A DNA stretch of 64,000 nucleotides from Bixzunavirus tonenili (taxonomy: Duplodnaviria > Heunggongvirae > Uroviricota > Caudoviricetes): IMG/VR virus record IMGVR_UViG_2706796412_000001, positions 1 to 64,000 of that record; one strand, written 5' to 3'. Of the stretch, positions 33,543 through 59,976 are shown one piece after another (within the stretch, counting starts at the first letter, position 1; every line of letters begins with the position of its first letter). The position numbers and the translations under genes were made by a program. Below the pieces are notes generated by a model. It made no database searches. It was not told the origin of the DNA and worked only from the letters and a program-made list of their open reading frames with translations.

Positions 33543-35798
33543 ATGTGCTACGGCTGCCAGCAGGTCCTTGCCGACCTGCAGGACTACCACGAGGGCGCAC
33601 GGATCACCGCCGCCGAGTACCAGGTCCCGCCGGAGTGGCAGCGCTACTACGACCACATGAGCGGTCAGCCGGATCGCTCGCAGGCCGCGCACCTGATGAT
33701 GCCGACCGAGCTGGTACACCACTACCGCGAGTACGACCGTGACCCCGCCGACCCGAACTACCAGGTGCTCAAGAAGGTCATCCGGGAGCACGGCAATCAG
33801 ATCCGTCAGCCGCTGGTGATCAACGCCGACGACACCCACGGCGTGCTGACCGAGGGCAATCACCGCGCGGCCATCGCGCGCGAGCTGGGCATCACTCATC
33901 TGCCAGTGCGGGTCCAGTACGGCCCTAAAGCCCAGGCCAACGAGGGCACCCCGGTGCCGCACCATCCTGCATTCAAGCAGTGGCTGGACGCGAACATGGG
34001 CACGTTGCGCACCGCCGGGGCCAACGGCGACCTTCCTGAGCTGCGCTACGAATACTCCATGGGCCCGAAGACCAAGCGTCACAGGCTCATGGCCTACGAC
34101 GACACTCTCCGCGTCGGCTGGCTCGACTGGACCCCGGGCGGAGAGGTCGAGAACATCGAAATTCATCCCGACTATCAGCGTCGAGGCATTGCCAGCGAGA
34201 TGTGGCGACGTGCTCAGGACATCGACCCCTACATCAGCCACTCGCGTGCTCAGACATCGGAGGGCAAGGCGTGGGCTGCTGCGGTTGGCGGACGTACCGC
34301 CAGCTTCCACGAGGGCGCACGGATCGCCGCCGCTGAGACCCCGTTCATCGCGCGCGGGATGTCCATCGGACTTCCCGACGATGACCACGACCTATTCCAT
34401 GCGATCAACGAGCACCGGGCCACCCCGGAGCACATGTATCGGCTGCTGACCCACACCGACGGGCGCGCGGGTGTGTGGTGGGGTACCTATCGCGACGACG
34501 AGCACCCCGACCCCAAGGCCTACGGCAGCTTCGAGGACTTCGTCGCGCATGCCGGAATGGGCGAGGAGTCGGTGGCCAAGTATCACGACTCTGGTGAGTA
34601 CCACGACCGCGTGCGCGCGGAAGGCGGCCAGGGCCCTGGTCAGATCTTCGCCGAGGTGCCGGTGGTCGCCGTCGGCACCCGACCCAAGCGCGGGGACGAG
34701 CTGTGGGACCCCGACAAGCACAACCCTGCCGACTCGCTGATGGGCAACTCCTATCTGGACGACAACGAGCCCATCGACCTGCACGAGGTGCACTACAACT
34801 CAGGCCGAGGCTGGGTGAAGGTGCCGATGAAGGGCTACCGTGTCCAGGCCGTGCGGACGGCGGGCGCCTATGACCCATATGTCCCGATTCGCCAGGATGA
34901 TCAGTTCGGCCAGTTCTACGCGCCGACGCAGACCGACGACCAGGGCCGTATTCGGGTACATCGAGGTCTAATCGTCCCGCACGGCACTCATCCCGATCAT
35001 GTTGCTGATGGCGGCGTCGGCCCACACTGGAGTGTCAACTCTCAGATCTCCGAATCATTCGCCGACCCGGACTATTACGGAGAGGGCGACGACGATATCG
35101 GCATGGTGCTGTCTGGTTGGCTCGATCCGACCCATGACACCAATATGGACTCCGACGACCTCACGGGCGGCAGCGGGTATCACAATGAGCAGGAGTTGAC
35201 CCTGCATCCAGGCACTCCTGTACATGTGGATCGGGTGCGGTGGAGACCGACGAATCATGACGGCCACTCCTGGAACGAGCACCCCTGGACTCCGCGCACC
35301 GTCACCGCCTTCTATCAGGCCGACGACTCGCTGATGGAGCCCGACCCGGCGCCATTCGGAGTTCCACGTCGATACGCTTCGATCCCTGATGGCTACAACA
35401 TCCATCTGGTCACCACCAACGGATACGGCGGTGGCACGGTGGCCGCATATCCGAAGACGGTGCGCAAGCCCGGCCCGAACAACTGGCATGCAGGCCTGCA
35501 GTGGGACAACTACGGCAAGATCACTCACGTCGACACCAAGGAACCGTATCGGGGCAAGGGACTGGCCAGGGCGCTCTACGAGCACGTCAAGCAGAACTAT
35601 CGTCCCGATCTCATGCATGACAGTGCGATCAGTGCTGACGGCAAGGCGTTCGCCGACGCCGTGGGTGGGCAGATGTTCGACGCCGACGAATATCAACGCC
35701 GACGCGATCAGCATGACCAGGAGAGGAAACTCCCCTACGAGCAACGCAGTCAGATGTGGAAAGAACGTGGCTGGCCAAGCTTCGGTGTGCTAGATTGA
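33543..35798 (+). CDS. polyvalent protein: ParB-like nuclease domain plus GNAT-like acetyltransferase motifs (752 aa)
   Basis: ParB/Srx motif QPLVINADDTHGVLTEGNHRAAIARELGITHLPV; GNAT-like IEIHPDYQRRGIASEMWRRA and YRGKGLARALYEHV; internal repeat HEGARI(T/A)AAE twice. Confidence 0.6.
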   Translation: MCYGCQQVLADLQDYHEGARITAAEYQVPPEWQRYYDHMSGQPDRSQAAHLMMPTELVHHYREYDRDPADPNYQVLKKVIREHGNQIRQPLVINADDTHGVLTEGNHRAAIARELGITHLPVRVQYGPKAQANEGTPVPHHPAFKQWLDANMGTLRTAGANGDLPELRYEYSMGPKTKRHRLMAYDDTLRVGWLDWTPGGEVENIEIHPDYQRRGIASEMWRRAQDIDPYISHSRAQTSEGKAWAAAVGGRTASFHEGARIAAAETPFIARGMSIGLPDDDHDLFHAINEHRATPEHMYRLLTHTDGRAGVWWGTYRDDEHPDPKAYGSFEDFVAHAGMGEESVAKYHDSGEYHDRVRAEGGQGPGQIFAEVPVVAVGTRPKRGDELWDPDKHNPADSLMGNSYLDDNEPIDLHEVHYNSGRGWVKVPMKGYRVQAVRTAGAYDPYVPIRQDDQFGQFYAPTQTDDQGRIRVHRGLIVPHGTHPDHVADGGVGPHWSVNSQISESFADPDYYGEGDDDIGMVLSGWLDPTHDTNMDSDDLTGGSGYHNEQELTLHPGTPVHVDRVRWRPTNHDGHSWNEHPWTPRTVTAFYQADDSLMEPDPAPFGVPRRYASIPDGYNIHLVTTNGYGGGTVAAYPKTVRKPGPNNWHAGLQWDNYGKITHVDTKEPYRGKGLARALYEHVKQNYRPDLMHDSAISADGKAFADAVGGQMFDADEYQRRRDQHDQERKLPYEQRSQMWKERGWPSFGVLD

Positions 35799-35874: not shown

Positions 35875-35957
35875 GGAGGGTGAGCATCAGGTGATGCAGC
35901 GAGATTGCTAATCCCGTACGGTAACCACCCCGTGAGGTTCGAATCCTCCTCCCTCCG
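35875..35957 (+). tRNA. tRNA-Ser(GCU)-like, class II (hand-folded)
   Basis: acceptor GGAGGGT/TCCCTCC, D-stem GCAT/ATGC, anticodon loop TTGCTAA with imperfect stem, long variable arm, T-arm GAGG-TTCGAAT-CCTC, G73. Confidence 0.4.
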
Positions 35958-36065
35958 CGTAGTACATCTATGGAGGATGAAGCAGCCGCGTAGTGCGGCG
36001 ACCGGATTCGAAACCCGGGTAGCGCGTCATGGCGCTTGGGGAGCGTGCCCTCCTTCCTCCGCTTG

Positions 36066-36149
36066 GGAGAAGAAACCGTCAAGGCTGACGGGACCGCTTG
36101 GAAAGCGGCTCGTGGGTAACACCATGAGGATCGTGCCCTCTCTTCTCCG
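36066..36149 (+). ncRNA. aberrant tRNA-like cloverleaf (8-bp acceptor, 6-bp D-stem with 4-nt loop, GGA anticodon-like loop, long variable arm, non-canonical T-loop)
   Basis: GGAGAAGA/TCTTCTCC closing stem; hairpins CCGTCA-aggc-TGACGG, CCGCTT-ggaa-AAGCGG, GAGG-atcgtgc-CCTC stacked on acceptor; G discriminator. Confidence 0.3.
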
Positions 36150-36150
36150 C

Positions 36151-36225
36151 GCTCCCGTAGCCCAATTGGCAGGAGGCACCAGATTCAGGATCTGGGCAGT
36201 GTGAGTTCGAATCTCACCGGGAGTA
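36151..36225 (+). tRNA. tRNA with Leu anticodon CAG but class-I architecture (75 nt)
   Basis: acceptor GCTCCCG/CGGGAGT, U8A9, anticodon stem CCAGA/TCTGG loop TTCAGGA, 5-nt variable loop GCAGT, T-arm GTGAG-TTCGAAT-CTCAC, A73. Confidence 0.5.
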
Positions 36226-36345
36226 CGTGTGTGTTCCATGTGGCGGATGTCCCGACTGCGGGCCGGTGTACGCGTGCGAACGTTGCGTCAAGGCAGCGTT
36301 CGACCGGGTGCTGGTCCGCTGGGCCTCTGTCCTGGAACGCCTCGC

Positions 36346-36419
36346 GTCTCTGTAGGCAAACCGGAAAAGCCGCCATCTTGAGGGGGTGGTGCGTGCGGGT
36401 TCGACTCCCGCCAGAGACA
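36346..36419 (+). tRNA. tRNA with Leu anticodon GAG but class-I architecture (74 nt)
   Basis: acceptor GTCTCTG/CAGAGAC, D-stem GGC/GCC with 11-nt loop, anticodon stem CCATC/GGTGG loop TTGAGGG, variable TGCGT, T-arm GCGGG-TTCGACT-CCCGC, A73. Confidence 0.5.
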
Positions 36420-36420
36420 C

Positions 36421-36493
36421 GCCGTGGTAGGCCATCTGGCGAGCCGCCGAATTCAAGTTTCGGTGTTTGCGGGTTCGAATCCCGCCCACGGTA
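36421..36493 (+). tRNA. tRNA with Leu anticodon CAA but class-I architecture (73 nt)
   Basis: acceptor GCCGTGG/CCACGGT, perfect anticodon stem CCGAA/TTCGG loop TTCAAGT, variable TGTTT, T-arm GCGGG-TTCGAAT-CCCGC, A73. Confidence 0.5.
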
Positions 36494-36563
36494 CAACCTG
36501 TAGAAAACCTACCGACCTGTTCTAACCAGTAGGAGCAACACCTTCTATCTGGCAGGAGCAGGG

Positions 36564-39500
36564 ATGAGTGACTTTGGTCTGTTCGAGGCGGCAGCTGACG
36601 CCGAACAGGAGCCGAGCCGTAAGCACCGGATCGCCGCGCGCAAGATGGCCGCAGCGCTGGCCGACGTGCACGCCAAGTTCGGGTCGTTCATGACCAACGC
36701 TGATGGCGTCGACAACTTTGAGGATCGATTCTCGATGAGTCGTCGTGACATCGCCAAGATCATGGTGGCCCACGGGGTGGGCGCCTATCCGGCGGTGATG
36801 CGTGAAGTCCACGGCAGCCTCAAGAGCGCCTGGTACGAGAAGCGCGCCGAGTTCGACGAGGATGCGGGCGACAGCGAGGAATCCAACTTCACCGACGGTG
36901 ACGACTCCGGCTCGGACAAGCCGGGCGACAAGGAGGCCCGCCGTAAGGTCGCTGAAGACCGTGACGCTCCGATTCAGGACATCCAGGAGACCTACGCGCC
37001 GTCGAGCGGCAACTTGATCCCCGAGGGCGACTTCGAGGGCTACCTCGACGACGTCGACCAGGGTGGTCCCGAGGCGGTCAGTGGCCACGACTTCACTCCC
37101 GGCGGCGATTCGGGCGCCGACGCGCCGCGACGCGAAGCTATGCAGCTCGTCGCCGATCTCTACACCGACTGGGCTCAGAGCAATGGTCTTCGTGTCGCGT
37201 CGATGAACACTCTCGACGTCTACGCGGCCAACGGCCTGCATGACGACGACTACTACCTGCTGGCCTCGCTGATCCACAAGGCTGAGTGCGAGTGTGACGA
37301 GGACAAGGACAAGTCCGACAGCGATGACTCGGACGACAAGTCCGATGACAGCGATTCGGGCAGCTCGGACAGCGACTCCGACACCGACACCGACACCGAT
37401 GGCCCCGAAGGTCCGGACACCGACACCGACGGCCCGCCTGCGGGTGCTGCCGAGAAGGGCGGCGAGACCTCCGACGAGGACGGATCCGAAGACGACTCCA
37501 ATCCGTTCGGCGGCGAGGGAGACACCGCCGAGAGCGGCGACGCCGAGGACGAGGCCCCTGAAGAGGGCGGCGAGGACTTCCCGGCAGACCCCAACGGCCT
37601 GGAGGACGCCGGTCCTCAGGACGCGCCCGTCGACGACGGCAGCGCTGGCGGTCAGGAGTTCACCGTCCCCGAGCAGGCCCCCGAGCTGCCACAGGACGAG
37701 ATGAGCCAGCTGCAGGACTCCGGCCCACAGAGCGTGCCGCCGGAGGTTATCGACGACATCCTGGGCCTGCCTCCGGGCACCCTGGAGCAGCTCATCGCCG
37801 AGGAACTCGGTCAGGCTGGCGGCGGCGCTCCGCCGCAAGGGCCGCCTCCGCAGTTGGCCCGCCGACGCCGTCAGGCGGCAGAGGACCCCACCGGGGCCGC
37901 TGAGTCTGCCGACCAGGGTGACGCAGCGGCGGCAGCAGCCCCGGCAGCCGCAGGCGCGGGCAGCGCTGGAGCCATCCCGCCGCCCGGATCGGCCTCGGTC
38001 GCTCCTCCGCCCGCCCCGGCGCCGCTGGAGAACCAGCCTGCCGAGGACGCGCTGCTGGACACCGCCGTGCAGTCGGTCACCCAGATGATCGACCGCGAGA
38101 CTCAGGAGTACCAGCAGATCATCGATCCGCTGACCCAGGCCCTGCAGGCGATCGAGTTCGCCCAGCAGGTTGAGCAGGCCGAGAACCCGCTGGATGTCAC
38201 CCCGCCGGAGGGCACCGTCGACGCCACTCCGGCAGCCGCCCCCGGTGGCGCCAACAGCCTGCAGCAGCAGGCTAGCCACGCGCGGCGCATGATGGCGCGC
38301 ACGGCAGGCATCGCCAAGCAGTTCGGTCTGACCAAGCGGGCCGAGGCCATGATGATCGACGCGATGAGCCGCAAGCACTACGAGCACGTGGCCGAGGCCA
38401 TCCGCATGGTGCCGCCGGAGATGCGCGGTCCGGTGGCCGAGCACATCGGCGCGATGTTCCGCGAGGACAACCCCCGGTTCAACCACGACCTGTGGATGCA
38501 GCACGTCGCCGGACGCACTGCGGGCCGCTGGAACACCCCGCCGGGCGGGACGCCGTGGCTGGATGCCACCCCAGCGAGCCGCCGCCCTTTCGTCGTTAGC
38601 CGGACTGCCGGGGAGACCTGGAAGAACACGCCCACCATGGACGCGTTCGAGTTCCCCGGCCACGGCGAGACGCCGGAGATCTCCGACAACATGAAGATCA
38701 ACGACCTGCCGAAGGCAAAGAGCGCCGCGCTCGACGTCGAGGCCAAGGGCGTGCTCGACATGTTCGACGACTTCACCAAGAAGCGCACCGAGAAGGGTCT
38801 GAACCTGGGCCCTGCGGCCAACGTCGAGACATTCAAGCAGGAGAAGGGCGACAAGGTCGGTCCCAAGGCTCTCGACAAACTGGAGAAGACCATCGAGGCC
38901 AACCGCAAGGCGGCGTCGTTCTTCACCCGCAAGGTGCCGGGCTGGCAATGGAACGACCATCTGGCCGGATACGTGAGCAAGGAGGCCCGCGCCTTCATCT
39001 GCTCGTGCGGCGCCGAGATCGAGACGCCGAGCTACACCATGTGCCACTGCGGCAAGATCTGGAACAGCTACGCGATCGGTGATGGCCACCATCTGGCCAG
39101 CGACTCTGCCGAGCAGTTCATCACCCGTGAGATCCCGGTCCGCAAGGATGTCGTGCTGGCCAACCGCCAGATGCAGGCCTGGACCTCTGACAGTGGCTGG
39201 ACCCCGCCGGACCAGCGCGACGTCGACTGGGTCGAGGACGAGGACCGCGAGGACGCCGACGCCCCGCACGCCCCGGGCAAGACCGCCGGTGCCTTCGGTA
39301 ACGATCACAAATTCCCCGGATGGGTGCAGAGTCTTCATCCCGAAGGACGGCACCCCGACGATATGGATGACAACGAGTACGCGGAGTGGAGTCACGCGTG
39401 GGCCACCGCAGGGGATGACTACCGGAATAAGTACCAGCCGCCTTCGGCGCCCGCACCGGGCAAGACCGCCGGTGCCTTCGACACCTACATGAACGGCCTG

Positions 39501-39851
39501 TCGCAGCTGCCGGAGTTCGACGAGTGGGCCATGGGCAGTGATCATGTCCCGGCGCCGGAATCCACACCTGCTCCTCCAGCACCAGCACCGGCTCCCTCGC
39601 TCAAGGACCGGGTCCGCCAGCATCTGATCGACCGGATGAACCGCACGGGTCCTCCTGGAGGTTTCGCCGGTGGCCGCTCGGCCAAGCTCAAGGACGAGGA
39701 CTACATCGTCAAGTACACCGACGATGAAGATCCGGCGCGTCGGTCCGGCCCAAAGAAGCCTCCGTCCACCACGATCAAGGGTGGAGATCAGAAGTGGCAC
39801 AGCCGCGCCGATGACGGCAAGTTCCAGTCCACCTCGCCGTTCGGGAAGTAG
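36564..39851 (+). CDS. giant acidic low-complexity protein (1095 aa) with poly-Asp/Ser/Thr tracts and C-terminal zinc ribbon
   Basis: uninterrupted ORF after GGAGCAGGG RBS; DSDDSDDKSDDSDSGSSDSDSDTDTDTD tract; Pro/Ala/Gly-rich linkers; CSCGAEIETPSYTMCHCG; antisense ORF 36522-39800 rejected. Confidence 0.6.
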   Translation: MSDFGLFEAAADAEQEPSRKHRIAARKMAAALADVHAKFGSFMTNADGVDNFEDRFSMSRRDIAKIMVAHGVGAYPAVMREVHGSLKSAWYEKRAEFDEDAGDSEESNFTDGDDSGSDKPGDKEARRKVAEDRDAPIQDIQETYAPSSGNLIPEGDFEGYLDDVDQGGPEAVSGHDFTPGGDSGADAPRREAMQLVADLYTDWAQSNGLRVASMNTLDVYAANGLHDDDYYLLASLIHKAECECDEDKDKSDSDDSDDKSDDSDSGSSDSDSDTDTDTDGPEGPDTDTDGPPAGAAEKGGETSDEDGSEDDSNPFGGEGDTAESGDAEDEAPEEGGEDFPADPNGLEDAGPQDAPVDDGSAGGQEFTVPEQAPELPQDEMSQLQDSGPQSVPPEVIDDILGLPPGTLEQLIAEELGQAGGGAPPQGPPPQLARRRRQAAEDPTGAAESADQGDAAAAAAPAAAGAGSAGAIPPPGSASVAPPPAPAPLENQPAEDALLDTAVQSVTQMIDRETQEYQQIIDPLTQALQAIEFAQQVEQAENPLDVTPPEGTVDATPAAAPGGANSLQQQASHARRMMARTAGIAKQFGLTKRAEAMMIDAMSRKHYEHVAEAIRMVPPEMRGPVAEHIGAMFREDNPRFNHDLWMQHVAGRTAGRWNTPPGGTPWLDATPASRRPFVVSRTAGETWKNTPTMDAFEFPGHGETPEISDNMKINDLPKAKSAALDVEAKGVLDMFDDFTKKRTEKGLNLGPAANVETFKQEKGDKVGPKALDKLEKTIEANRKAASFFTRKVPGWQWNDHLAGYVSKEARAFICSCGAEIETPSYTMCHCGKIWNSYAIGDGHHLASDSAEQFITREIPVRKDVVLANRQMQAWTSDSGWTPPDQRDVDWVEDEDREDADAPHAPGKTAGAFGNDHKFPGWVQSLHPEGRHPDDMDDNEYAEWSHAWATAGDDYRNKYQPPSAPAPGKTAGAFDTYMNGLSQLPEFDEWAMGSDHVPAPESTPAPPAPAPAPSLKDRVRQHLIDRMNRTGPPGGFAGGRSAKLKDEDYIVKYTDDEDPARRSGPKKPPSTTIKGGDQKWHSRADDGKFQSTSPFGK

Positions 39852-39862
39852 AGGGCAGTCCC

Positions 39863-40231
39863 GTGAGGGATTTGTGTTTCGGGTGCAAGACGTTCAAGGA
39901 GATCGTCCACACCGAGAGCGGGACGGGTCATCCGTACTGCCAGGAGTGTGCCCTGATGCAGCCGCCGACCTCCGACGAGTGGGCGTTGGTGTTGCTCAAC
40001 GCCCCCTGGTCGCCGTTTTCGGCCCCCTTCCGTCCGGGCGACAGGGTGGAGGCCCGCACGGCGGGTCAGATCTTCGACGGAGTCGGCGAAGTCGTCGACA
40101 TGTCCGTCTCGCTGGAGCACGGGGGAACTCCCGTGTATCCAACGTTCAAAGTGGTTCTCAGCGAAAAGGCACACGACCTGGCTCCTGACGAAGCCTGGTA
40201 CACGGAATGCTGCCTTCAACGAGTGGAGTGA
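39863..40231 (+). CDS. zinc-ribbon protein (122 aa)
   Basis: GTG after GAGGGCAG; CFGCK..x14..CQEC. Confidence 0.4.
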   Translation: MRDLCFGCKTFKEIVHTESGTGHPYCQECALMQPPTSDEWALVLLNAPWSPFSAPFRPGDRVEARTAGQIFDGVGEVVDMSVSLEHGGTPVYPTFKVVLSEKAHDLAPDEAWYTECCLQRVE

Positions 40232-40234
40232 TGC

Positions 40235-42874
40235 ATGAGTAGTCCCATCTACAAGGCCGGGTCCAACTGGTCGGCAGAAGTCAGCCGCCTGCGTAAGGCG
40301 GGCGTGAGCATGCCGAACAGCCCGGCTCTGGCTCGGGCTCAGGCTGCCGCATTCCAGAACACCGTGGACAACAAGCCGCTGATCGACTACTTCCAGGGGC
40401 GCCGTCGCGCCGCTGCGGCCAATCGGGCCCGGCTGGAGAGCTACCGGGGTCGAGGCATGGCTCGCGCGGCCAGCTTCGGTTCCAACATGCAGATCGCCAT
40501 GCCCAAGATCCGCCAGCCGTTGGGCACGCTGGCCGACAAGGGCATCCCGTTCAACGTCGAGGACGAAGAAGAGCTTCGGGTCATCAGACACTGGTGCCGC
40601 CTCTTCTATGCCACCCACGACCTCGTCCCGCTGCTCATCGACATCTACTCGAAGTTCCCGGTCGTGGGCATGGAGTTCGACTCCAAAGACCCACTGATCA
40701 AGACGTTCTACGAGGACCTGTTCTTCGGCGAAGACCTCAACTACCTGGAGTTCCTCCCCGACCAGTTCGGGCGCGAGTACTTCACCGTCGGCGAAGTGAC
40801 CTCGCTGGCGCACTTCAACGAGTCGCTCGGCGTCTGGTCGTCGGAAGAGATCCTCAACCCCGACATGCTGCGGGTGTCCCGGTCTGTTTTCCGCCGCCCC
40901 GAACGCGTCCAGCTCATGGTCAAGGATCTCGTCGACAGTCTGCGTCAAGGCCCGCAGTCGGCGGGCGGCAACATGTCGACCGTCGAGGAGACGCCCTCGG
41001 AACGGCTGCAGCGCATGCGCGAGTTCGAGGATCTGCAGCGCAACTACCCCGAGATCATTCAGGCCGCGATGCAGAACGACGGTCTCGACATTTCTGAGGC
41101 TCTGGTCAGCCGCGTGGTTAACCGGCCCACCCCGTGGGCCACCCGGGGCGCTCCGCACCTGTTGCGGTCGTTCCGAACTCTGATGGCCGAGGAGTCGCTC
41201 AACGCTGCCCAGGACGCCGTGGCCGATCGCCTCTACAGCCCGCTGGTGCTGGCCACCCTCGGTATCGAGGATATGGGCGACGGCGAGCCGTGGATCCCTG
41301 ACGCCTCGGAGCTGGACGAGGTGCGCGACGACATGCAGGCACTGCTGGCCGCCGACTTCCGGCTCATGGTGCACAACTTCGGTCTGAAGGTGGAGAACGT
41401 CTTTGGGCGCGAGAGCGTGCCCAACCTCGATACCGACTACGACCGCATCGAGCGCAAGCTGCTGCAGGCCTGGGGCATCGGTGAGGCCTTGATCTCCGGT
41501 GGCACCGGCGGCGCCTACGCGTCCAGCGCGCTCAACCGTGAGTTCGTCACCCAGATCATGACCGGCTTCCAGAACGCCCTCAAGCGTCACATCCGGCGCC
41601 GGTGCGAGGTGGTCGCCGAAGCCCAGGGCCACTACGACTACGACCTCAAGGGCGGGGTCCGTGTCCCGATCTATCGCGAGATTGTCGATTACGACGAGGA
41701 GACCGGCCAGGAGTACATCCGCAAGGTCCCCAAGCTGCTTATCCCAGAGATCAAATTCTCCACGCTCAACCTGCGTGACGAGGCCCAGGAGCGTGCCTTC
41801 ATCGCCCAGCTCAAGGGCATGGGCGTGCCGGTGTCGGACAAGACTCTGGCGGTCAACATCGACATGAAGTTCGACCAGGAGCTGGAACGTCAGGCCGACG
41901 AGACGGTGCAGAAGCTCATGGCCACCGCACAGGCCATGAAGAAGGTCCAGGACCTGTGCGACGCGCAGAACCTGCCTTACCCGCCGGAGCTGGCCCAGCA
42001 CCTGCAGTCCACCCTGGCCCTGCGTCAGGGCAAGACCCAGACCGAGCTGGGCGAGGCTCAGGCGGTCGCGGGCGAGGCCCAGGCCGAGCTGCAGACCAAG
42101 CAGATCGAGATGCAAGAGGTCATGCTGGACCAGCAGATGTCTGGCGGTGCGATGCCCGGTCAGCCGATGCTGCCACCGGGTGCTGCCGGTCCTCCTCCCG
42201 GCATGCCCGGCGATCCTGCCGCCGCCGAAGGCCCGCCCCCGCCCGCCGGTGGCCCGATGGGCGGTCCTCCGGTGGCCCCGGCGCCCGGCGTCGCCGGGCC
42301 GGGCAACGCTCCGGCGAGCTTCTACGCGGCCAGCCTGCGCACGGCGGACGCCATCAATGGCCCGACCGGCACCGGTCCCTCGGCGGACGGTCCGCTCGGC
42401 CCGACCGGACCCGAGTTGCCTCCCGGCGTGCCCGAGCCGACCGAGGTCCCGCGCAACCGGCAACGTCCGGCGGAGTCCGACGACAACCACCCGGGCGGCA
42501 ACCTCAAGCCCGCCAGCCGTCGCAAGCGGACTCGCAAAGGTGTCGAGGAGCCACGCGGCCTGAGCCGATTCGAGCGCGGACCGTCCAGCTACGGCAAGAG
42601 CAGGACAGCTTCCGAGGAGCATGTGATTGCTCAAATCCGCCGTCGTGAGGCGGTAGCCAACTGGGATTGGTCACAGTTCCGTAACGGTCCAAGAGTTGCT
42701 GATCTGGTTCATGATCCGCGCTTTTACCAGGCCACCAACATGCAGGCGTATCAGTCGCAGTTGCAGGCCGACTGGCCGGAGATCCAGGCCGGTGGCGCAG
42801 AGGACAGTCGCCGGATTCTGGACGATATGCTGAGCCAATTTCACGAGATCTTTGGTGTCGAACCGCAGTGGTGA
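40235..42874 (+). CDS. large virion protein, possible portal (879 aa) with Pro/Gly-rich C-terminal region
   Basis: position at start of head module; size; PPGAAGPPPGMPGDPAAAEGPPPPAGGPMGGPP low-complexity tail; functional call tentative. Confidence 0.5.
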   Translation: MSSPIYKAGSNWSAEVSRLRKAGVSMPNSPALARAQAAAFQNTVDNKPLIDYFQGRRRAAAANRARLESYRGRGMARAASFGSNMQIAMPKIRQPLGTLADKGIPFNVEDEEELRVIRHWCRLFYATHDLVPLLIDIYSKFPVVGMEFDSKDPLIKTFYEDLFFGEDLNYLEFLPDQFGREYFTVGEVTSLAHFNESLGVWSSEEILNPDMLRVSRSVFRRPERVQLMVKDLVDSLRQGPQSAGGNMSTVEETPSERLQRMREFEDLQRNYPEIIQAAMQNDGLDISEALVSRVVNRPTPWATRGAPHLLRSFRTLMAEESLNAAQDAVADRLYSPLVLATLGIEDMGDGEPWIPDASELDEVRDDMQALLAADFRLMVHNFGLKVENVFGRESVPNLDTDYDRIERKLLQAWGIGEALISGGTGGAYASSALNREFVTQIMTGFQNALKRHIRRRCEVVAEAQGHYDYDLKGGVRVPIYREIVDYDEETGQEYIRKVPKLLIPEIKFSTLNLRDEAQERAFIAQLKGMGVPVSDKTLAVNIDMKFDQELERQADETVQKLMATAQAMKKVQDLCDAQNLPYPPELAQHLQSTLALRQGKTQTELGEAQAVAGEAQAELQTKQIEMQEVMLDQQMSGGAMPGQPMLPPGAAGPPPGMPGDPAAAEGPPPPAGGPMGGPPVAPAPGVAGPGNAPASFYAASLRTADAINGPTGTGPSADGPLGPTGPELPPGVPEPTEVPRNRQRPAESDDNHPGGNLKPASRRKRTRKGVEEPRGLSRFERGPSSYGKSRTASEEHVIAQIRRREAVANWDWSQFRNGPRVADLVHDPRFYQATNMQAYQSQLQADWPEIQAGGAEDSRRILDDMLSQFHEIFGVEPQW

Positions 42875-49215: not shown

Positions 49216-52200
49216 GTGGCTACCAAGCACGTGCTGCATGCCGAACGACGGGACATCACCACCCGTCCTACGGACAGGGCCATCCGGCGCAAGCTGAAGC
49301 ATGCCGAGACTATCGGCGACTTCAAAATGCGTCCGGGTTACCTCTACACCGTGGTTCGGGCCATCTCGGCGCGAGTTAACCAGAACTACGACGGTTGGCC
49401 GTCCGAAGAGCTGAAGAAGGCCGCGCACACCTTCATCGGAAAGCCGGTCTTTGTCAACCACGAGAACTACGACCCGAAGAAGGCTAGGGGAGTTGTTGTC
49501 GCCGCTCGTTACGTCGAGAACGGCAACGACAAGTTCATCGAGGTCATTCAGGAAATCGACGCCAAGCGTTTCCCAAAGCTGGCCCGCGAGATCCGCACCG
49601 GCGGACTTGACTCTGTGTCGATGGGCGCCGAGGCCGGATTCACGATCTGCTCTTACTGCGGCAACAAGGCGACCGACGTCCCCGACTTCTGCGATCACGT
49701 CAAGTACCACAAGGGCGACCGTTTGCCACGGTGGAACGCTAAGACCGGCAAGGTCGAGGACGTTCTGGTCTACGAGTCCTGCCACAAGATCAGCTTCTTC
49801 GAGTTGAGCTATGTGTTCGACCCGGCGGACGAGACGGCGGTGGCCTCCAAGGTCATCATGGCCAACAACAAGACCGCTGCCGACTGCCCGCCCGGCCAGG
49901 ACTGCACGGTCGGCGGCAAGCCCGAGGACCAGATCACTCCGGACTCGGCCAACAACCCGGTCAACGGCGGCAGCAACGACAGCAGCAGCACCGGCGGCGG
50001 TGCTGGAGCGAGCGCGGCCACCACGGTTTCTGGCGGCGAGCTGGGCGAGCCTGGCGAGTCGGTGTCCGCCGGAGGAGGAGCCGGGGCCGACGGCATCATG
50101 GACGTCTCGCGCCCGCTCTACGACCAGCTCAAGACGATCGACCCGAACGCCGACATCGGCGGCTACCGCCCTGGCGGCGACGGCTACGACGAGCACAACA
50201 ACGGCGCGCTCGACTACATGACCACCGACCCGGCAGTGGCCGAACAGGTCAAGCAGAAGGCGTTCGAGAACGGCGCCCCGTACGTCATCTGGCAGCAGCA
50301 GCTGCACTATCCCGACGGCTCCACCAAAGCGATGGAGGACCGAGGCAGTCCGACGCAGAACCACATGGACCACGTGCACACGGGCCCGCTCACCGGACCG
50401 AAGGCTGCCCGGGTCGAGCACACGGTTCTGGTCACCGCCGGGTTCGTCGATCCGGCTGCCGACTGCACCGTATGCCGTCAGGCCCGGGTGGCCACCAAGT
50501 GCCACTACTGCGCCGGAGACGCCGAGGAGGGCTTCTCCTCGTGCGCCGCGCATCGGCCCATGGAAGAGAAGAAGTTCAGGGCCGCACAGCGAGAGGAGGC
50601 CGCGATGACGTTCGAGGCCCGCGTGATTCGTGAGTTCCTCGGTGGCCCGCCGCCACCGGCCCGCCCGATGACCGGCATCGAGCACCAGCCCGGCCTCAAC
50701 CCCGAGGACTATGTCGTGCCGTACAAGGGGCGCGGCTACAAGCCCGGCATGCCGGTCGACGTCTACCGCAACCTGCATTCGGAGAAGACCGGCACCGGCC
50801 TGTGGTCGGTCCGGCACAAGGGCCAGGTGGTCGGCCACGCCGATTTCATCCACATGCCCGACGGCAAGTTCTTCGTCGGCGAGGGCGGCAACCAGAAGGT
50901 CCAGGAGACCGGCCAGAAGAACGTGCACGCCGGAGCGCGCGGCGTGCTGGGCCCGGTGCCGCACGATCACGATCCGTCCCAGTACGTCGGCATCACCTAC
51001 AACCCCAAGGCCGGAGACACCAGCTTCTACCAGCGCGAGACCAAGGAGCCGGTCTGGGAGGCCGACCATGTGCACCTGGGTCCCGACGGCAAGGCCTACA
51101 CCCTCGGTCCGCGCAGCGGCATGGCCAGCGCCGACCAGAAGGTCTTCGAGGCCATGGTCCTGCAGGCCTACGGCGAGACCGAGGCGCCCACCCGTGTGGA
51201 CACCCTGCGTGAAGAGGGCTCGGCGCCCGAGGACGACAACAACGACTTCTACCACTACGTCGAGCCGCCCAAGGAGCTGCAGACCCCAGATCTGTCTGAG
51301 GCCGCACAGATCGACCGCGAGCAGGCCGAAAACATGGGCGGCAATGGTGCTGTCGACACCGACGGTGATCCCGGCCCGCACAGCGTGATGAACCAGCAGC
51401 CTGCCGCGCCGCAGCAGCAGTACATGACGCTGCAGATCCCGATCCCTCCGCAGGGTGCGGGCGTCCCGAGCGTGCCGATGCAGGCCTTCCAGCCTCAGCC
51501 CGGTCCCGCCCCGGCCCCGGCACAGCAGATCGCTGCCTCGACGCTCGACTACTTCGACCGCTACTTCGGGCGCCGTGTGGCCAACTGGCTCGACGCCGTC
51601 GAGGCCGGGCGCCCGTTCACCGCCGAAGAGGCTTCGGACTACAGGCGGCAAGCAATGAAGCTATCGACCCTGCAAAACGCGGCCTCAGCTTCAACAACAA
51701 GTAGGAACCCCAGGAAAGGAACCGCCAACATGGCACGCAGCACTCTCGCCTCGCGCAGCAAGGTGGTGACGGCTGGTCGTCGGCAGCACTTCGCCGAAGG
51801 TCCGTTGGTGGACTCCGGCGACCAGAGCCGCAACGACCAGGGAGAGCAGGAAGAGGCCTTCATCTCGACCACGCCTCCCGAGGAGCCGGTGGTGGCTCCG
51901 ACCGATGACACCCCGAACATCTCCAACACCGAGCAGAACCTCGTTGCTCGGGTGCAGCGGGGCCGCGCCCAGCTCATGGCCGACGCGCAGAAGCTGGCTC
52001 AGCTTCAGGCCGCCCGCAAGCGCCGGACGGCCAACGAGGCCGGAGGCCCGGTGGCCACCGAGGTCAACCCGACCGTCAACTCCGGCCCGGGCGCCGAGGA
52101 GCTGACCGGGGACGACTTCGAGTCGGCCAACCCCAACGACGGCGTTGTCGAGACTCAGCCCAAGGATGCGAGCCTCCACGCGTTCCGCACCTTCGACTCG

Positions 52201-52926
52201 TGGCTGAAGCGCAAGACGGGCAAGTCGAGCCGGTACCACACTCACGCGACGATTCGTCGCGCGGCGGACGACTTCAGCCGTCAGTCCGGAGTTTCCGTCC
52301 AGGCCCTGTTCCCGGCCCTGGGAATCGTGCTGCGAGAAGCACGAAAGAACGAAAAGGCAGCAGCCAACACCAAGGGAGCCAACATGCGCAAGCGCGCCGA
52401 CGAGAAGCTGGAAGTCGCAGCTCCGGATGGACGTGTTGACGTCGAGGCCCCGACCCGAGGAACGACTGACGCAGAGGCTCAGGCCTCTCAGTTCGACCTC
52501 AACGACTTCGGCAACAACGCCGGAGACGATATCGCCGATCCGGATCTGAGCACTGATCAGAACTGGGCCCCCGGCGAGGCCACCAAGACCAGCAGGGTCA
52601 AGACGGCAGGTGGCGTTCTCGCCTTCCGTCTGGCGGAAGCCATGATCGCTGCTGGTATCGAGCCGAACACCGCCGAGCGGAAGTATGCGCTGGCGGCAGA
52701 GTTCGAAAACATGAGCCGTGGTGCGGTCCAGGACCGTATCGCGCTGTGCGAGCGCTTCGTGCCGGTTCTGGCCGCAGCTCGCCGTCAGGTCGCCAGCGGT
52801 AGTACTCGCGGGGCCGCACTGAAGTCCCCCATCCCTTCGGGTCTGGCACAGGGCGCGCAGCGCACCGCCGGTCGCGCAGTGGTGGCGGCAAACGACCCCC
52901 GTAATGACTCTTCGCTCTTCATCTGA
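49216..52926 (+). CDS. giant protein (1236 aa) with HK97-type (S78) prohead protease-like N-terminal region
   Basis: GTG after AGAGGAGG; N-terminal KPVFVNHENYDPKKARGVVVAARYVENGN resembles S78 protease His-region; immediately upstream of capsid genes; rest Pro/Ala/Gln-rich. Confidence 0.55.
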   Translation: MATKHVLHAERRDITTRPTDRAIRRKLKHAETIGDFKMRPGYLYTVVRAISARVNQNYDGWPSEELKKAAHTFIGKPVFVNHENYDPKKARGVVVAARYVENGNDKFIEVIQEIDAKRFPKLAREIRTGGLDSVSMGAEAGFTICSYCGNKATDVPDFCDHVKYHKGDRLPRWNAKTGKVEDVLVYESCHKISFFELSYVFDPADETAVASKVIMANNKTAADCPPGQDCTVGGKPEDQITPDSANNPVNGGSNDSSSTGGGAGASAATTVSGGELGEPGESVSAGGGAGADGIMDVSRPLYDQLKTIDPNADIGGYRPGGDGYDEHNNGALDYMTTDPAVAEQVKQKAFENGAPYVIWQQQLHYPDGSTKAMEDRGSPTQNHMDHVHTGPLTGPKAARVEHTVLVTAGFVDPAADCTVCRQARVATKCHYCAGDAEEGFSSCAAHRPMEEKKFRAAQREEAAMTFEARVIREFLGGPPPPARPMTGIEHQPGLNPEDYVVPYKGRGYKPGMPVDVYRNLHSEKTGTGLWSVRHKGQVVGHADFIHMPDGKFFVGEGGNQKVQETGQKNVHAGARGVLGPVPHDHDPSQYVGITYNPKAGDTSFYQRETKEPVWEADHVHLGPDGKAYTLGPRSGMASADQKVFEAMVLQAYGETEAPTRVDTLREEGSAPEDDNNDFYHYVEPPKELQTPDLSEAAQIDREQAENMGGNGAVDTDGDPGPHSVMNQQPAAPQQQYMTLQIPIPPQGAGVPSVPMQAFQPQPGPAPAPAQQIAASTLDYFDRYFGRRVANWLDAVEAGRPFTAEEASDYRRQAMKLSTLQNAASASTTSRNPRKGTANMARSTLASRSKVVTAGRRQHFAEGPLVDSGDQSRNDQGEQEEAFISTTPPEEPVVAPTDDTPNISNTEQNLVARVQRGRAQLMADAQKLAQLQAARKRRTANEAGGPVATEVNPTVNSGPGAEELTGDDFESANPNDGVVETQPKDASLHAFRTFDSWLKRKTGKSSRYHTHATIRRAADDFSRQSGVSVQALFPALGIVLREARKNEKAAANTKGANMRKRADEKLEVAAPDGRVDVEAPTRGTTDAEAQASQFDLNDFGNNAGDDIADPDLSTDQNWAPGEATKTSRVKTAGGVLAFRLAEAMIAAGIEPNTAERKYALAAEFENMSRGAVQDRIALCERFVPVLAAARRQVASGSTRGAALKSPIPSGLAQGAQRTAGRAVVAANDPRNDSSLFI

Positions 52927-54766: not shown

Positions 54767-55144
54767 ATGCGCCGCATCGTCACCGCACGTGAGCAGGCTG
54801 AGATGCTGCTGCCGTGGCGCACGGCGATGCCCTGGTATGGCGTTCCTGATGAGCACAGGGGTGTGCCGATGTACCACAGCTCCCCGTCATACAACCGCGA
54901 CTCCATCCAGAGTCAGGGGCTGACAACTGGGTTTTCTGACGACGAGGGGATTGAGCCAGGCATCTATATGACGCCGATCAAGCACGACTACCTCGATGCC
55001 GATCATGACGTGTGGCAAATTGATACTTCAGGTCTGGAACACCTAGAGCCTGATGGAGGATATGACCACCCCACAACCGGCAAACATCTGCCTGCGTACT
55101 GGACTCGAAATAACATTCCACCTCATGCCTTGAAGCGACTGTAG
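54767..55144 (+). CDS. protein with N-terminal RIVTAREQAEMLLPW motif (125 aa)
   Basis: GGGAGG RBS; N-terminal motif shared with 57084 and 58675 genes. Confidence 0.5.
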   Translation: MRRIVTAREQAEMLLPWRTAMPWYGVPDEHRGVPMYHSSPSYNRDSIQSQGLTTGFSDDEGIEPGIYMTPIKHDYLDADHDVWQIDTSGLEHLEPDGGYDHPTTGKHLPAYWTRNNIPPHALKRL

Positions 55145-57083: not shown

Positions 57084-58682
57084 ATGCGAATCACCACTGC
57101 TCGCGAGCAGTTCGAAATGCTCTTGCCCTGGCGAGAGGCCGACGTCGCTATTCGCCCAGACGCCGTTCCGCCAGGAGTTCCTGGTGCTGGCAATCAGCCT
57201 CAGATCCCGGCCCGAGAGAAGAACATCGGCGAAAACACGCCATGGTCGCAGGTCGACTGGCGTACCGCCGACGATTACGGGGCGCATCGGTCCACCAGTC
57301 GACCACCGATGTCTTCCGACATCCCGCACCCGACCGAGCTGCTCGATCCCCGCAAGGCCGGTCATCGTGCACGCCTGGAGCGTGCGATGGCCAGCGAAGA
57401 CCCGGTGAACGATCCATGGAACGTCCTCGGCGGCACACCCTGGACATTCGAAGACCTGGTCCAGAACCACATGAGCCACCACCAGAACATGAATCCCGAG
57501 CAGGAGTTTCAGGGGCGTGTCTGGTACCCAGCGGCCCATGACTCCACCAAGGACGTGGCCCAGCGGACCATCGGTGACCACGAGCGCACGGTGGCCGTCG
57601 ATTCGGCGCTGTCGCCGGTCAAGGACTGGGACCTCAACAACGAGCAGATGATCCACTACCTGACCAACTACGAGGGTCAGGAGGGATACAAGTCTCCGAC
57701 GAAGAACTGGAAGGGATTCAGCCGCGACGCGCCCGAGCGCGACCCTGAGAACCGGTTCCGGGTCAAGGCGCCCGACGATCAGAACGAGAAGGCTCATCGG
57801 CTGATGGACGCCCCGGCAGGATCGCTGGGGCGAGAGGACTACCTCAACATCCTGTCCGGCCCCAAGACCAGCTCCTTCTTCAACAACATCCTCGACGAGA
57901 CCCCGCTGCGCGAACCGCGCTCAGGCGTGCCGGACGACGAGGGGTTCTACGAGCACCAGATCAATCCGAACACCGGCAAGCCGGACTGGCGCTACGGCGA
58001 TCAGGACGTCACCGTGGACACCCATCACGCTCGGGTTCAGACGATCCCGCACGGCGCCGATCTCAGCCAGGTGGGGTACGTGGTGCCCGACCACTTCGGC
58101 GAGAAGCTCACAGTCAACAAGAAGGCCTACCACCCCGGTTATGACCTGCACGCTCGTGCGTCGGCGGAAGCAACCCGTCGGCTCAACGCCATGCAGGAGG
58201 ACGACCTGCGGACCTTGAAGCCCAAGCAGGCTCAGGCCGGTCCGTGGGTCAAGTTCAAGAAGGACGTCGTCGACGCCGGTGTGTCGCCGAACATGCCCGA
58301 GCCCGGCCAGATGCCCAAGTCTTTCAATCCCGACAAGCCGACCCAGCTGAGGGGCCCGTATCCGAACACTCCGGACCAGCCTCGTTACCAGCGTGACGTT
58401 GGCGACTTCTGGGTACATCCAGACCGTCCGGACCCGGACTTGCGCCGGGCTCCGAACTGGAACAACCGCACGCCCAGCTGGCGTAGCGAGAAGAATCGTC
58501 GGCAGTCGTCGGTGCGGGTGGGCTTCGTCGAGGAATGGATCGCTCAGCACTTCCCGCATCGGGCTTCTGGCGTTCCCGAAGACGGCAGCGTCCAGCAGGT
58601 GGTTCAGGCCAGCTTCGACGACGGATCTCGGCTGACTGCTGAGACTCTCGCCTTCGCCGATGAGGTGCTCAAGAATGTGTAA
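57084..58682 (+). CDS. large protein (532 aa) with N-terminal RITTAREQFEMLLPW motif
   Basis: shared N-terminal motif; Pro/Asp-rich; downstream of capsid genes. Confidence 0.55.
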   Translation: MRITTAREQFEMLLPWREADVAIRPDAVPPGVPGAGNQPQIPAREKNIGENTPWSQVDWRTADDYGAHRSTSRPPMSSDIPHPTELLDPRKAGHRARLERAMASEDPVNDPWNVLGGTPWTFEDLVQNHMSHHQNMNPEQEFQGRVWYPAAHDSTKDVAQRTIGDHERTVAVDSALSPVKDWDLNNEQMIHYLTNYEGQEGYKSPTKNWKGFSRDAPERDPENRFRVKAPDDQNEKAHRLMDAPAGSLGREDYLNILSGPKTSSFFNNILDETPLREPRSGVPDDEGFYEHQINPNTGKPDWRYGDQDVTVDTHHARVQTIPHGADLSQVGYVVPDHFGEKLTVNKKAYHPGYDLHARASAEATRRLNAMQEDDLRTLKPKQAQAGPWVKFKKDVVDAGVSPNMPEPGQMPKSFNPDKPTQLRGPYPNTPDQPRYQRDVGDFWVHPDRPDPDLRRAPNWNNRTPSWRSEKNRRQSSVRVGFVEEWIAQHFPHRASGVPEDGSVQQVVQASFDDGSRLTAETLAFADEVLKNV

Positions 58683-59976
58683 CCACCGTCGCATCGTCAC
58701 CGCCCGCGAGCAGTTCGAGATGCTGCAACCCTGGCACCGCGAAGCGGCTGCGCACCCGGAGGCTCACCCGGATCTGCACCACAGCTTCGCCACGCACGGC
58801 TCGGTGCACACCACCGGTGGCCGCGTGCTGCCGCAGCGCACCGCCAACTCGCCGACCTTCCAGGATCCGGCGGGATGGACCTTCCACAAGTCCTTCGAGC
58901 CCAGCCAGCACGCATTGCAGGGCGCACGGGCCTACGCCTCGCTGGTCGGCCTGCCGGACCCACACTCCGGTCATGTGGACTACCTCAACGCCCGCCGGAC
59001 GCCCGACAGCGTGGCCAAGGTGGCCAAGGCCTACGACAGCCTGCCGGACATGGACCGCAGTGCCATCCCGCACTTCCAGGCGATGGCCGACGAGGTGGCC
59101 AAGCAGCACGACTTCATGACCAATCGTCTGGGCATCAAGACCCAGTCGGTGGACTACGACCCGTACACCGACGTGCACGAGATGCTGCACGACATCAACC
59201 ACAACAAGACCCTCAAGGTGATGGGCACCCATGTCACCGGCGGGCATCCCTTGTTCAGCAACAAGCAGAACGACATGTTCCGCGCTGTGCACGACTTCTT
59301 CGGTCATGCCGCGACCGGGCGCAGCTTTGACCGACATGGCGAGCAGGCTGCATACCTGGCGCACGCGCAGATGTTCTCTCCGCACGCGCTGCCCGCGCTG
59401 GCCAGCGAGACCAAGGGTCAGAACAGCTCGCTGATCTACAACGGCCAGTTCGGTCCGCAGAAGATCGGCATCATGTCGCCGGAGCACTACACCGACGGCC
59501 TGGCGCTGCACCGACCGCGTATGTCATCCTATAGAACAGCTGTAGGAGATCCACAGTGGCAGAACGAGGTAGAGAAGGCCGTGCGCGAGACGGGCGGGTA
59601 CACCTTCCGCGATCGTCCTGGTGACGGCCCGCAGAGCGGATTCATGGTGGCCCTGCCGGGCGCCGAGAAGATCGTTCCGCGTGACGAGTTCTCCGGAGAG
59701 GATGCCGCCCGCTATCGCCAGGAGTGGGACGACAGGATCCGGGAGGATCCCGATCGCTATCAGGGTGGCTGGGACGACGTCGAGTCGGGCAACTTCTACC
59801 ACGACGTGGCCAAGCACTACGACGACCTCTGGGAGTCGGGTGTGGCCGGACGCGCCGAGAACGACGAAGATGCCCAGCACGGTATCTACCATCTCGACTC
59901 CGACACCACGTTCAGCCCTCTGGAGGTCAACTACGGCGGCACGCCGGGATACATGATGGCCAGGAGGGAAGACTGA
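58675..59976 (+). CDS. large protein (433 aa) with N-terminal RIVTAREQFEMLQPW motif
   Basis: ATG overlaps upstream stop; shared N-terminal motif; His-rich central segment HDFFGHAATG. Confidence 0.55.
   Translation: MCNHRRIVTAREQFEMLQPWHREAAAHPEAHPDLHHSFATHGSVHTTGGRVLPQRTANSPTFQDPAGWTFHKSFEPSQHALQGARAYASLVGLPDPHSGHVDYLNARRTPDSVAKVAKAYDSLPDMDRSAIPHFQAMADEVAKQHDFMTNRLGIKTQSVDYDPYTDVHEMLHDINHNKTLKVMGTHVTGGHPLFSNKQNDMFRAVHDFFGHAATGRSFDRHGEQAAYLAHAQMFSPHALPALASETKGQNSSLIYNGQFGPQKIGIMSPEHYTDGLALHRPRMSSYRTAVGDPQWQNEVEKAVRETGGYTFRDRPGDGPQSGFMVALPGAEKIVPRDEFSGEDAARYRQEWDDRIREDPDRYQGGWDDVESGNFYHDVAKHYDDLWESGVAGRAENDEDAQHGIYHLDSDTTFSPLEVNYGGTPGYMMARRED

Follow-up and report, generated by a model that had tools for sequence, protein, structure and literature searches.

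The gp97 locus and its module map

The window analyzed here, a 64,000-nucleotide (nt) stretch of DNA, corresponds to bases 1-64000 of the genome of Mycobacterium phage Tonenili (NC_031080.1; genus Bixzunavirus). We focused on gp97 (gp097, YP_009287961.1), a plus-strand gene at 33543..35798. The 10-kb region around it matches Tonenili at 100%, and its coordinates are identical in NC_031080.1. From sequence comparison, gp97 is predicted to be the Tonenili version of an effector gene that is hypervariable among Bixzunavirus-like phages and borders their head-gene block on its upstream side. A first-pass annotation had reported a 752-amino-acid (aa) open reading frame. We found that the frame is real and has 752 codons including the TGA stop, so that the protein is 751 aa long. 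The ATG at 33543 is the right start because it lies 2 nt past the gp96 stop, has a GGGAAG ribosome-binding site ahead of it, and gives the MCYGC N-terminus present in every gp97 ortholog. The deposited name is hypothetical protein; UniProt and some GenBank records use ParB-like nuclease domain protein.

The predicted architecture of gp97 is that of beads on a string: a leader, a ParB/sulfiredoxin-type domain, a mini-GNAT, a module termed C, an R-S-E-type ADP-ribosyltransferase (ART; module D), and a second mini-GNAT with a basic tail. All of these features lie on the plus strand. The 13-aa N-terminal leader, MCYGCQQVLADLQ (leader type 1; aa 1-13, 33543..33581), is shared without change by the orthologs of Bxz1, Rabinovish, Cane17, and Alice. 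It is followed by scar 1, DYHEGARITAAE (aa 14-25, 33582..33617), which consists of the final residues of an absent “W” module and holds the first copy of the string HEGARI. The ParB/sulfiredoxin-type N-terminal domain (aa 26-155, 33618..34007), assigned by a profile match to solved ParB and sulfiredoxin structures, runs into an RTAG junction (aa 156-159, 34008..34019) beside a DNA breakpoint at aa 152. Mini-GNAT module 1 (aa 160-250, 34020..34292; PF00583, profile A8) carries the acetyl-CoA loop QRRGIA at aa 212-217. An RTAS junction and scar 2, FHEGARIAAAE, come next (together aa 251-265, 34293..34337), with the second HEGARI copy and a DNA breakpoint at aa 254. Module C (aa 266-437, 34338..34853), a conserved family with a probable degenerate ART-like fold, is separated by another RTAG junction (aa 438-441, 34854..34865; DNA breakpoint at aa 442) from module D, the putative ART (aa 442-590, 34866..35312; R474, S497, E549-Q-E551). 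Scar 3, YQADDSLMEPDPAPFGVPRRYA (aa 591-612, 35313..35378), is the remnant of yet another module, and a longer form, FYQADDPYGVDYETQGYGDHIYQTDIDDSLMEPDPAP, occurs in the relative P0009. Mini-GNAT module 2 (aa 613-709, 35379..35669; PF00583, phrog_2579) carries the acetyl-CoA loop RGKGLA at aa 670-675. The chain closes with a basic helical C-terminal tail (aa 710-751, 35670..35795) that is conserved in P0003 and P0004 and lies within the phrog_2579 match.

The ratio of nonsynonymous to synonymous substitution rates (dN/dS) was 0.09-0.26 for the modules common to gp97 and Cane17, Bxz1, and Rabinovish, and these shared modules are therefore under purifying selection. The motifs listed in the first-pass annotation covered gp97 incompletely: 45% of the protein, including module D and module C, was left unexplained. 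A single-sequence AlphaFold model of the full 751 aa was unusable (predicted local distance difference test score, 37). Pfam searches with isolated modules returned no ParB or ART model, and no match for the modules seen in relatives.

We next consider the ParB/sulfiredoxin signature that had been reported in the N-terminal region. The string in question lies at aa 93-124, with EGNHR at aa 104-108, and the assignment gained support from a family profile. This profile (A7, 20 family fragments) matched solved structures, with 7bnk_A on top (E=1.2e-7) and Spo0J, Noc, and sulfiredoxin after it. In the alignment with 7bnk_A, GNHR stands opposite the GERR box (G-x-x-R). Residues Y61, E63, R66, E104-G105-N106, and R108 are invariant in the family. 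PHROG ParB-like families matched gp97 weakly (1e-5 to 1e-3). PF02195 gave no ParB match for gp97 or for the isolated module, even at E<=10, and one family member, P0019, passed this model (30.1 bits vs a gathering score of 26.3). The module is ~130 aa long and comprises the N-domain only; alignments to PDB structures showed that the helix-turn-helix and dimerization parts are absent, and a junction motif follows directly. No ParA match was found among the subset of the window's proteins that was scanned with Pfam or PHROGs. Membership of the DdrB-like ParB clade was not supported: hhalign of A7 against P1 DdrB gave 0.75% probability, a weak test with a single sequence on one side.

The two acetyltransferase-like motifs noted earlier, HPDYQRRGIASEMWRRAQ (aa 208-225) and YRGKGLARALYEHVKQNY (aa 668-685), also held up. 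PF00583 scored 37.4 bits on whole gp97, 24.6 on module 1 alone, and 19.3 on module 2 alone (cut-off 20.7), so that the whole protein and module 1 pass. Profile A8, built from 24 family sequences, matched 82 solved GNAT sequences (best, 7wx5 at 8e-7), as well as mycothiol synthase MshD (2e-5), RibT, and RimI. Module 2 matched phrog_2579 (E=1.8e-22) and phrog_30890. We use the name mini-GNAT because the modules are only ~90 aa long, compared to ~150 aa for the complete fold with its N-terminal helices and C-terminal strands, and the matches span only the strands before motif A and helix alpha-3. The mini-GNATs are GNAT cores in which the R/Q-x-x-G-x-G/A loops are kept, and they may be complete enzymes.

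Module D is identified by its predicted fold and catalytic residues as an R-S-E-type ART, with predicted activity. The catalytic set consists of R474, S497, and E549-Q-E551, with the S-T-S motif reduced to H-W-S (H-W-S/T across the family). In an alignment of 23 sequences, G56, W59, and E114 were invariant and R37, H58, and E112 nearly so (alignment numbering). Given the E-x-E, the targets would probably be arginines in proteins. Pfam yielded no ART model match for module D, and phmmer and hmmsearch against PDB sequences yielded non-significant matches only (Vis and XopAI at E 0.2-0.3). A tblastn search of 50,697 phage records with module D matched Tonenili only. Its closest relative is a 180-aa metagenomic protein with a leader (55% identity in alignment A3), and the module at the N-terminus of Bxz1 gp83 is a diverged paralog (pairwise E=4e-7).

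More than 30 representatives make up the well-conserved family of module C, which has the motifs IARG, GxWWG, KRP, WDPExHNP, and LMGNSYL (alignment A4, 26 sequences). The isolated module had no Pfam or PDB sequence match, and phmmer and hmmsearch gave nothing meaningful. When aligned with the module D family by hhalign, it matched over the C-terminal half (78% probability, E=1.8e-5), with a gap in module C opposite the E-x-E of module D. Module C is thus probably a degenerate ART-like fold distantly related to module D. A combined alignment of C and D (A5) was dropped after MAFFT placed D-family fragments over module C, and module D was modelled alone.

Mosaicism and the wider family

The segment HEGARI(T/A)AAE had been reported to occur twice and had been read as an internal duplication. 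We observed HEGARI at aa 16 and aa 256 of gp97, 240 aa apart. The repeat is real, because an exact 6-mer repeat arose in only 1.4% of shuffles of gp97 and the two DNA copies match at 28/30 bases. In Bxz1 gp83 and Rabinovish gp80, DYDFHEGARITAAE is the end of a ~125-aa W module that starts with NKSAHPPLSQLW. Tonenili is without this module; two copies of its final residues remain, one behind the leader (as in Cane17 gp71) and one ahead of module C (as in Bxz1). The repeat stands, and the duplicated domain does not: sequence comparison identifies the two copies as 11-aa recombination scars, or linker remnants. The real internal paralogy predicted for gp97 is that of the two mini-GNAT modules and, more distantly, of C and D.

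At the DNA level, gp97 is a mosaic, and the HEGARI repeats are scars of module exchanges. Nucleotides 1-458 of the gene are 97% identical to Cane17 gp71, and nt 456-559 are 99% identical to Rabinovish gp80. The next segment, nt 560-761, is unique to Tonenili. The W-end and module C segment (nt 762-1328) is 97% (96.8%) identical to Bxz1 gp83, nt 1329-1832 (module D) are again unique to Tonenili, and the 3' end (nt 1833-2256) is 96% identical to Rabinovish gp80. The DNA of scar 1 (nt 40-75) is 92% identical to nt 1360-1395 of Bxz1. Breakpoints fall at aa 152, 186, 254, 442, and 611, and 3/5 of them lie beside junction motifs (aa 156, 251, and 438). GC content along gp97 ranged from 0.58 to 0.69, and no clear foreign island was seen.

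Behind an identical 13-aa leader, we found at least six module orders (Tonenili, Bxz1/Dandelion, Rabinovish, Lukilu, JPickles/Alice, and Cane17) in phages that are ~90% identical over their aligned flanks (77-80% of the 10-kb query). Unannotated modules without a Pfam match were present in Bxz1 gp83 (L002:3407-5716), Rabinovish gp80 (L003:3956-5665), Cane17 gp71 (L012:3001-4515), P0008, and P0012. Among the modules of relatives, V contains LVHFT..YSFFTT, Z contains LYHAT..SYWTHD, and Y starts with EDRWDHPAEG. By eye, the module in P0008 and P0012 resembles the rifampin ADP-ribosyltransferase Arr (WFHVS..VWLAPNY..IYEVKP). The C-termini of P0008 and P0013 are glutaredoxin domains (PF00462).

An exhaustive HMMER search recovered 571 cluster representatives at E<=1e-3, up to 3620 aa long and with up to 11 matched stretches; two alignment-based word-index homolog searches had returned only 8 and 4 proteins. 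Mapping with module hidden Markov models placed up to 14 modules in one protein. One chain held 13 mini-GNATs and an ART, and another held five ARTs, two ParBs, and one GNAT. The ParB module is absent from P0004, P0008, P0009, and P0010. One relative, P0023, has a SprT-like zincin peptidase domain (PF10263), and P0164 contains HEIAH. The multi-module relatives and the SprT-like peptidase member support well, at the family level, a classification as polyvalent proteins. The first-pass annotation had suggested this class for gp97, and the suggestion is strengthened by the added ART module, the probable degenerate ART, the large multi-module relatives, and the conserved synteny with head genes described below.

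Leaders, junction motifs, and the head-gene neighborhood

The sequence [RKH]-T-A-[GAMS] occurred 274 times in 159 family proteins vs 23 times expected from composition (~12-fold), and its density outside module cores was 17x that inside. The codons of the motif differ synonymously. This variation rules out a DNA-level repeat as the origin of the junction motif, and it indicates that the motif is selected at the protein level. In the sequences compared, the motif marks the starts of modules and also closes the N-terminal leaders of single-module relatives. We distinguished four leader types, each ending in the motif: MCYGC.. (type 1), M.RRIVTAREQ.EML.PW[RK]TA (type 2), MS.WGLHTAA (type 3), and MKIQ.Q.ETF.YR[VI]AA (type 4). 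These patterns matched 44/159 representatives, and ~20 more were assigned by eye. The cargo behind them is interchangeable, and many of the proteins have a single module. The MCYGC start was found in 13/159 representatives, with differing cargo modules. The leaders look like signals, because a linker would serve no purpose ahead of a lone domain.

Leader type 2 also heads three head-module genes of Tonenili, all on the plus strand: gp245 (125 aa, 54767..55144), where leader and motif read MRRIVTAREQAEMLLPWRTAMP; gp240 (532 aa, 57084..58682), which starts with MRITTAREQFEMLLPWREAD; and gp239 (433 aa, 58675..59976), which starts with MCNHRRIVTAREQFEMLQPWHREAA. Among sequenced phages, this leader was found in 214 records, at 2-3 places per genome, and the carriers are essentially the lineage that holds the gp97 family. 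In gp245 the leader runs directly into RTAMP, and the remaining 100 aa look by eye like a small ART-like module of the H-Y-E type (MYHSS..GIYMT). The string HEMLH occurs at aa 168 of gp239.

Within the window, the string RTA was found 22 times vs 3.9 expected in the 34 genes between 31.6 and 64 kb, and 2 times vs 4.6 expected in the 91 genes upstream. Carriers include gp92 (three copies), gp258, gp250, and gp249. The product of gp249 (49216..52926, plus strand) has a head-maturation protease domain at aa 61-213 (phrog_18299, E=2.7e-19), KTAA at aa 219, and ~1000 further residues; it is a candidate processing enzyme. By eye, VNH and SVSMG in this domain are catalytic-looking strings of the HK97 type. 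The protease domain has a Cys-rich insert, and the rest of the protein includes a Phage_L5_gp82 domain and lysin/tape-measure-like matches. Like gp97, gp249 varies in length (1236 aa vs 1511 aa in the Alice ortholog).

Directly downstream of gp97 and its tRNA neighbors is gp258 (1095 aa, 36564..39851, plus strand), a conserved partner with three RTAG and two KTAG sites that we place in the proposed set of head proteins. About 3/5 of its motif sites are kept in the 60%-identical ortholog of L006, a metagenomic Bixzunavirus-like relative. The gp258 gene always stands between the polyvalent gene and DUF7245/portal. Its product contains extended acidic low-complexity tracts rich in D, S, and E, together with a Cys-rich segment (CSCG..CHCG), and it has no family annotation beyond a match to phrog_2922 (function unknown). 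The conserved N-terminus of gp258, MSDFGLFEAAAD, resembles leader type 3, MSDLWGLHTAAD. The DUF7245 gene, gp257 (39863-40231), begins with VRDLCFGCKTF...CQEC, a zinc-ribbon-like CxxC pair. Its first CxxC resembles the MCYGC start of gp97, possibly by coincidence. The portal gene starts at 40235. We dropped gp257 and the portal as motif carriers because the L006 orthologs do not share their copies.

The order polyvalent gene, gp258-like gene, DUF7245, portal was kept in two divergent metagenomic relatives, L006 and L009. The position of gp97 beside both tRNAs and head genes had been taken to fit the polyvalent idea. The tRNAs, tRNA-Ser(gct), tRNA-Leu(cag), tRNA-Leu(gag), and tRNA-Leu(caa) (35875..36494, plus strand), are neighbors without a functional link to gp97. 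In L009, the homologous gene is 70 nt from the gp258 homolog (the locus itself was not scanned for tRNAs). This gap leaves no room for a tRNA array, and the adjacency to tRNAs is therefore incidental, and that to head genes conserved. A further relative, P0012 (L010), is located among sheath genes. Close relatives also differ in the short interval that separates the polyvalent gene from gp258. It holds an HNH endonuclease gene in Rabinovish (L003:5802-6251), two tRNA-Ser and three tRNA-Leu genes in Alice (L011:3314-3721), and an annotated tRNA pseudogene with two tRNA-Leu genes in Bxz1 (L002:5987-6333), compared to one Ser and three Leu genes in Tonenili. Scanning 31-37 kb for promoters and terminators gave no useful information.

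Another relative, P0011, lies in a prophage-like region of Mycolicibacter kumamotonensis (L008). It is flanked by genes for an ADP-ribosylglycohydrolase (PF03747, L008:2718-3113) and a histone-deacetylase-family protein (PF00850, L008:13273-14181). These enzymes could undo ADP-ribosylation and acetylation and are possible self-protection partners of ART/GNAT effectors. In the head-gene block of L006, a small gene of the Acb2/Tad1-hairpin type (anti-CBASS/Thoeris sponge family; L006:19921-20139) lies between the portal gene and the gene for a LysM protein.

Proposed packaging and processing, and alternative explanations

Polyvalent proteins and head-packaged ARTs have been described previously (PMC5512222, PMC9503650). 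Like gp97, the polyvalent proteins of Iyer, Burroughs, Anand, de Souza, and Aravind (2017; PMC5512222) combine unrelated enzymatic domains (ART, GNAT, ParB) in one chain, are encoded beside virion genes, and have variable architectures. As in relatives of gp97, many repeats of one domain can occur. Processing peptidases (zincin, SprT-like) are frequent in polyvalent proteins, and not universal (PMC5512222); some gp97-family members have a SprT-like zincin. The gp97 family is nevertheless distinct from known polyvalent proteins in its R-S-E ART, mini-GNAT arrays, ParB module that is not detectably DdrB-like, and leader/junction system. An R-S-E ART was reported as not seen in that study, the gp97 ParB module has no detectable relation to P1 DdrB, the prototype of their ParB clade, and gp97 has no peptidase in cis. 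The main text of PMC5512222 does not mention the leaders or the [RKH]-T-A-[GAMS] junction motif, and the only mycobacteriophage example given there is a solo GNAT, Alice gp113, which differs from the Alice ortholog of gp97 (gp75).

In phage T4, a capsid-targeting sequence is the only feature common to the varied internal proteins (PMC3012670), and Alt, an ART, is injected (PMC5512222). The gp97 family resembles this system in having a short N-terminal peptide on unrelated cargo, a hypervariable locus, and ART cargo, and the end motif of the leaders could be a maturation-protease site. This is a mechanistic likeness and not homology: there is no sequence similarity, T4 cargo is encoded by separate genes, and targeting and cleavage are demonstrated in T4 and inferred for gp97. 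The T4 protease gp21 cleaves after L/I-x-E, whereas gp249, the candidate protease for gp97, looks HK97-type by eye. The head-packaged anti-restriction proteins DarB and DdrB of phage P1 are also large and encoded beside head genes, and DdrB, which has a ParB-type domain, undergoes proteolysis before it is packaged (PMC5512222). In place of ART and GNAT domains, the P1 proteins have methylase, helicase, and metallopeptidase domains. Compared to arginine-specific R-S-E mono-ADP-ribosyltransferase toxins (pertussis toxin S1, E. coli LT, PltA, Scabin, and Vis), module D shows 9-18% identity, has H-W-S for S-T-S, is ~150 aa long and embedded in a chain, and is without a Pfam ART model match.

We favor, with moderate confidence, a role for gp97 as a polyvalent effector of the head-gene block that is packaged via its leader, possibly cut at its junctions, and active on the host at infection. 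The protein would be made together with the head proteins, and the leader would steer it into the prohead, as the T4 capsid-targeting sequence does for internal proteins and Alt. Cleavage at the junction motifs, by the N-terminal protease of gp249 or by another protease, may release separate enzymes, and the products would be delivered with the phage DNA. In the host, macromolecules would be ADP-ribosylated by the ART and acylated by the GNATs, and the ParB domain would bind or hydrolyze nucleoside triphosphates or nick DNA. The shuffling of modules would reflect an arms race with hosts or rival elements. More tentatively, and at a likelihood that falls short of even, Bixzunavirus-like actinophages may use a head-loading code for effectors. 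This code would consist of four interchangeable 12-22-aa leaders and [RKH]-T-A-[GAMS] as the processing site, and with it any small enzyme module could become cargo of the head. Chains such as gp97 would be joined units of site and module, recut by a virion protease into ART, GNAT, and ParB effectors, in a T4-like system that evolved independently.

Several observations weigh against packaging and processing. Our search of the literature found no virion proteomes of Bxz1, I3, or Catera, no proteomic, N-terminal sequencing, or expression results on any gp97 ortholog, and nothing on the leader sequences. Leader type 1, which gp97 carries, is not the one that heads gp245, gp240, and gp239. Adherence to the motif is loose: at the ParB junction, LQRQAG stands in the commonest C1 allele, and the strict motif lies near only 20-40% of module ends. 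Many motif counts come from the conserved mini-GNAT N-terminus TAGANGDLP, which inflates the totals. The motif copies of gp257 and the portal are not conserved in L006, where these proteins are 79-80% identical, so that the late-gene enrichment may be due in part to chance. The major capsid protein is without the junction motif. RTVTA is the final beta-strand of the module D model, and the motif may be partly structural and not a free cleavage site. Foldseek of this model against the PDB placed ARTs on top at a non-significant level (E about 0.1). Finally, gp97 has no HExxH and no match to a peptidase model.

The same data bear on other explanations. A multi-enzyme protein that is never packaged, and acts intact in the infected cell in takeover or anti-defense, would fit a literature search that found no packaging data for any ortholog, and the absence of a peptidase in cis. 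The motif and leaders would then be flexible linkers and in-frame recombination joints. Breakpoints do coincide with the motif, recombination plus selection for in-frame joints could suffice, and a motif that is partly structural in module D would not disturb this explanation. Moreover, ~95 small genes of a kind typical for early regions precede gp97, and a tRNA cluster lies between it and the head genes. We nonetheless judge the unpackaged protein to be rather unlikely. A linker role does not explain why single-module relatives keep a conserved 12-22-aa leader that ends in the motif. A shared leader (type 2) heads three head-module genes. Enrichment of RTA is confined to the later half of the window. 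The L009 gene abuts the gp258-like, DUF7245, and portal genes without a tRNA cluster, and the L010 gene lies among sheath genes.

Hypervariable internal and C-terminal modules behind a constant N-terminus also resemble polymorphic toxins, and the prophage relative lies near potential antidotes, the ADP-ribosylglycohydrolase and deacetylase genes. In such a weapon against competitors, ART/GNAT modules would poison co-infecting phages or non-immune cells, and phage competition would drive the reshuffling. However, Tonenili has no adjacent immunity gene (the tRNA cluster is next), no secretion apparatus is annotated in Tonenili or its sequenced relatives, and the genes nearby are head genes and not toxin-export genes; we consider this role improbable. 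The name used in UniProt and some GenBank records, together with the ParB profile as the strongest single match to solved structures, would suit what is essentially a ParB-type DNA-handling protein (in partition, packaging, or nucleoid remodelling) with accessory or decayed other segments. We give this very little credence: the ParB module accounts for ~130/751 residues and is without the helix-turn-helix and dimerization parts of partition ParBs, the other modules keep catalytic residues and are under purifying selection, and some relatives have no ParB module at all.

Cluster C mycobacteriophages are widely used, and the gp97-type gene is labelled “hypothetical” or “ParB-like nuclease” in >200 genomes. 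Its predicted set of reshuffled host-modifying enzymes, including an ART found only in Tonenili among sequenced phages, provides candidates for taking over or disarming mycobacteria. The pattern of leaders and junctions makes the virion targeting of polyvalent proteins, and their separation into working parts, testable, and it points to defined sites for mutation and to a protease candidate encoded by Tonenili itself. Should the leaders prove to be targeting tags, they could be used for loading foreign proteins into mycobacteriophage capsids.

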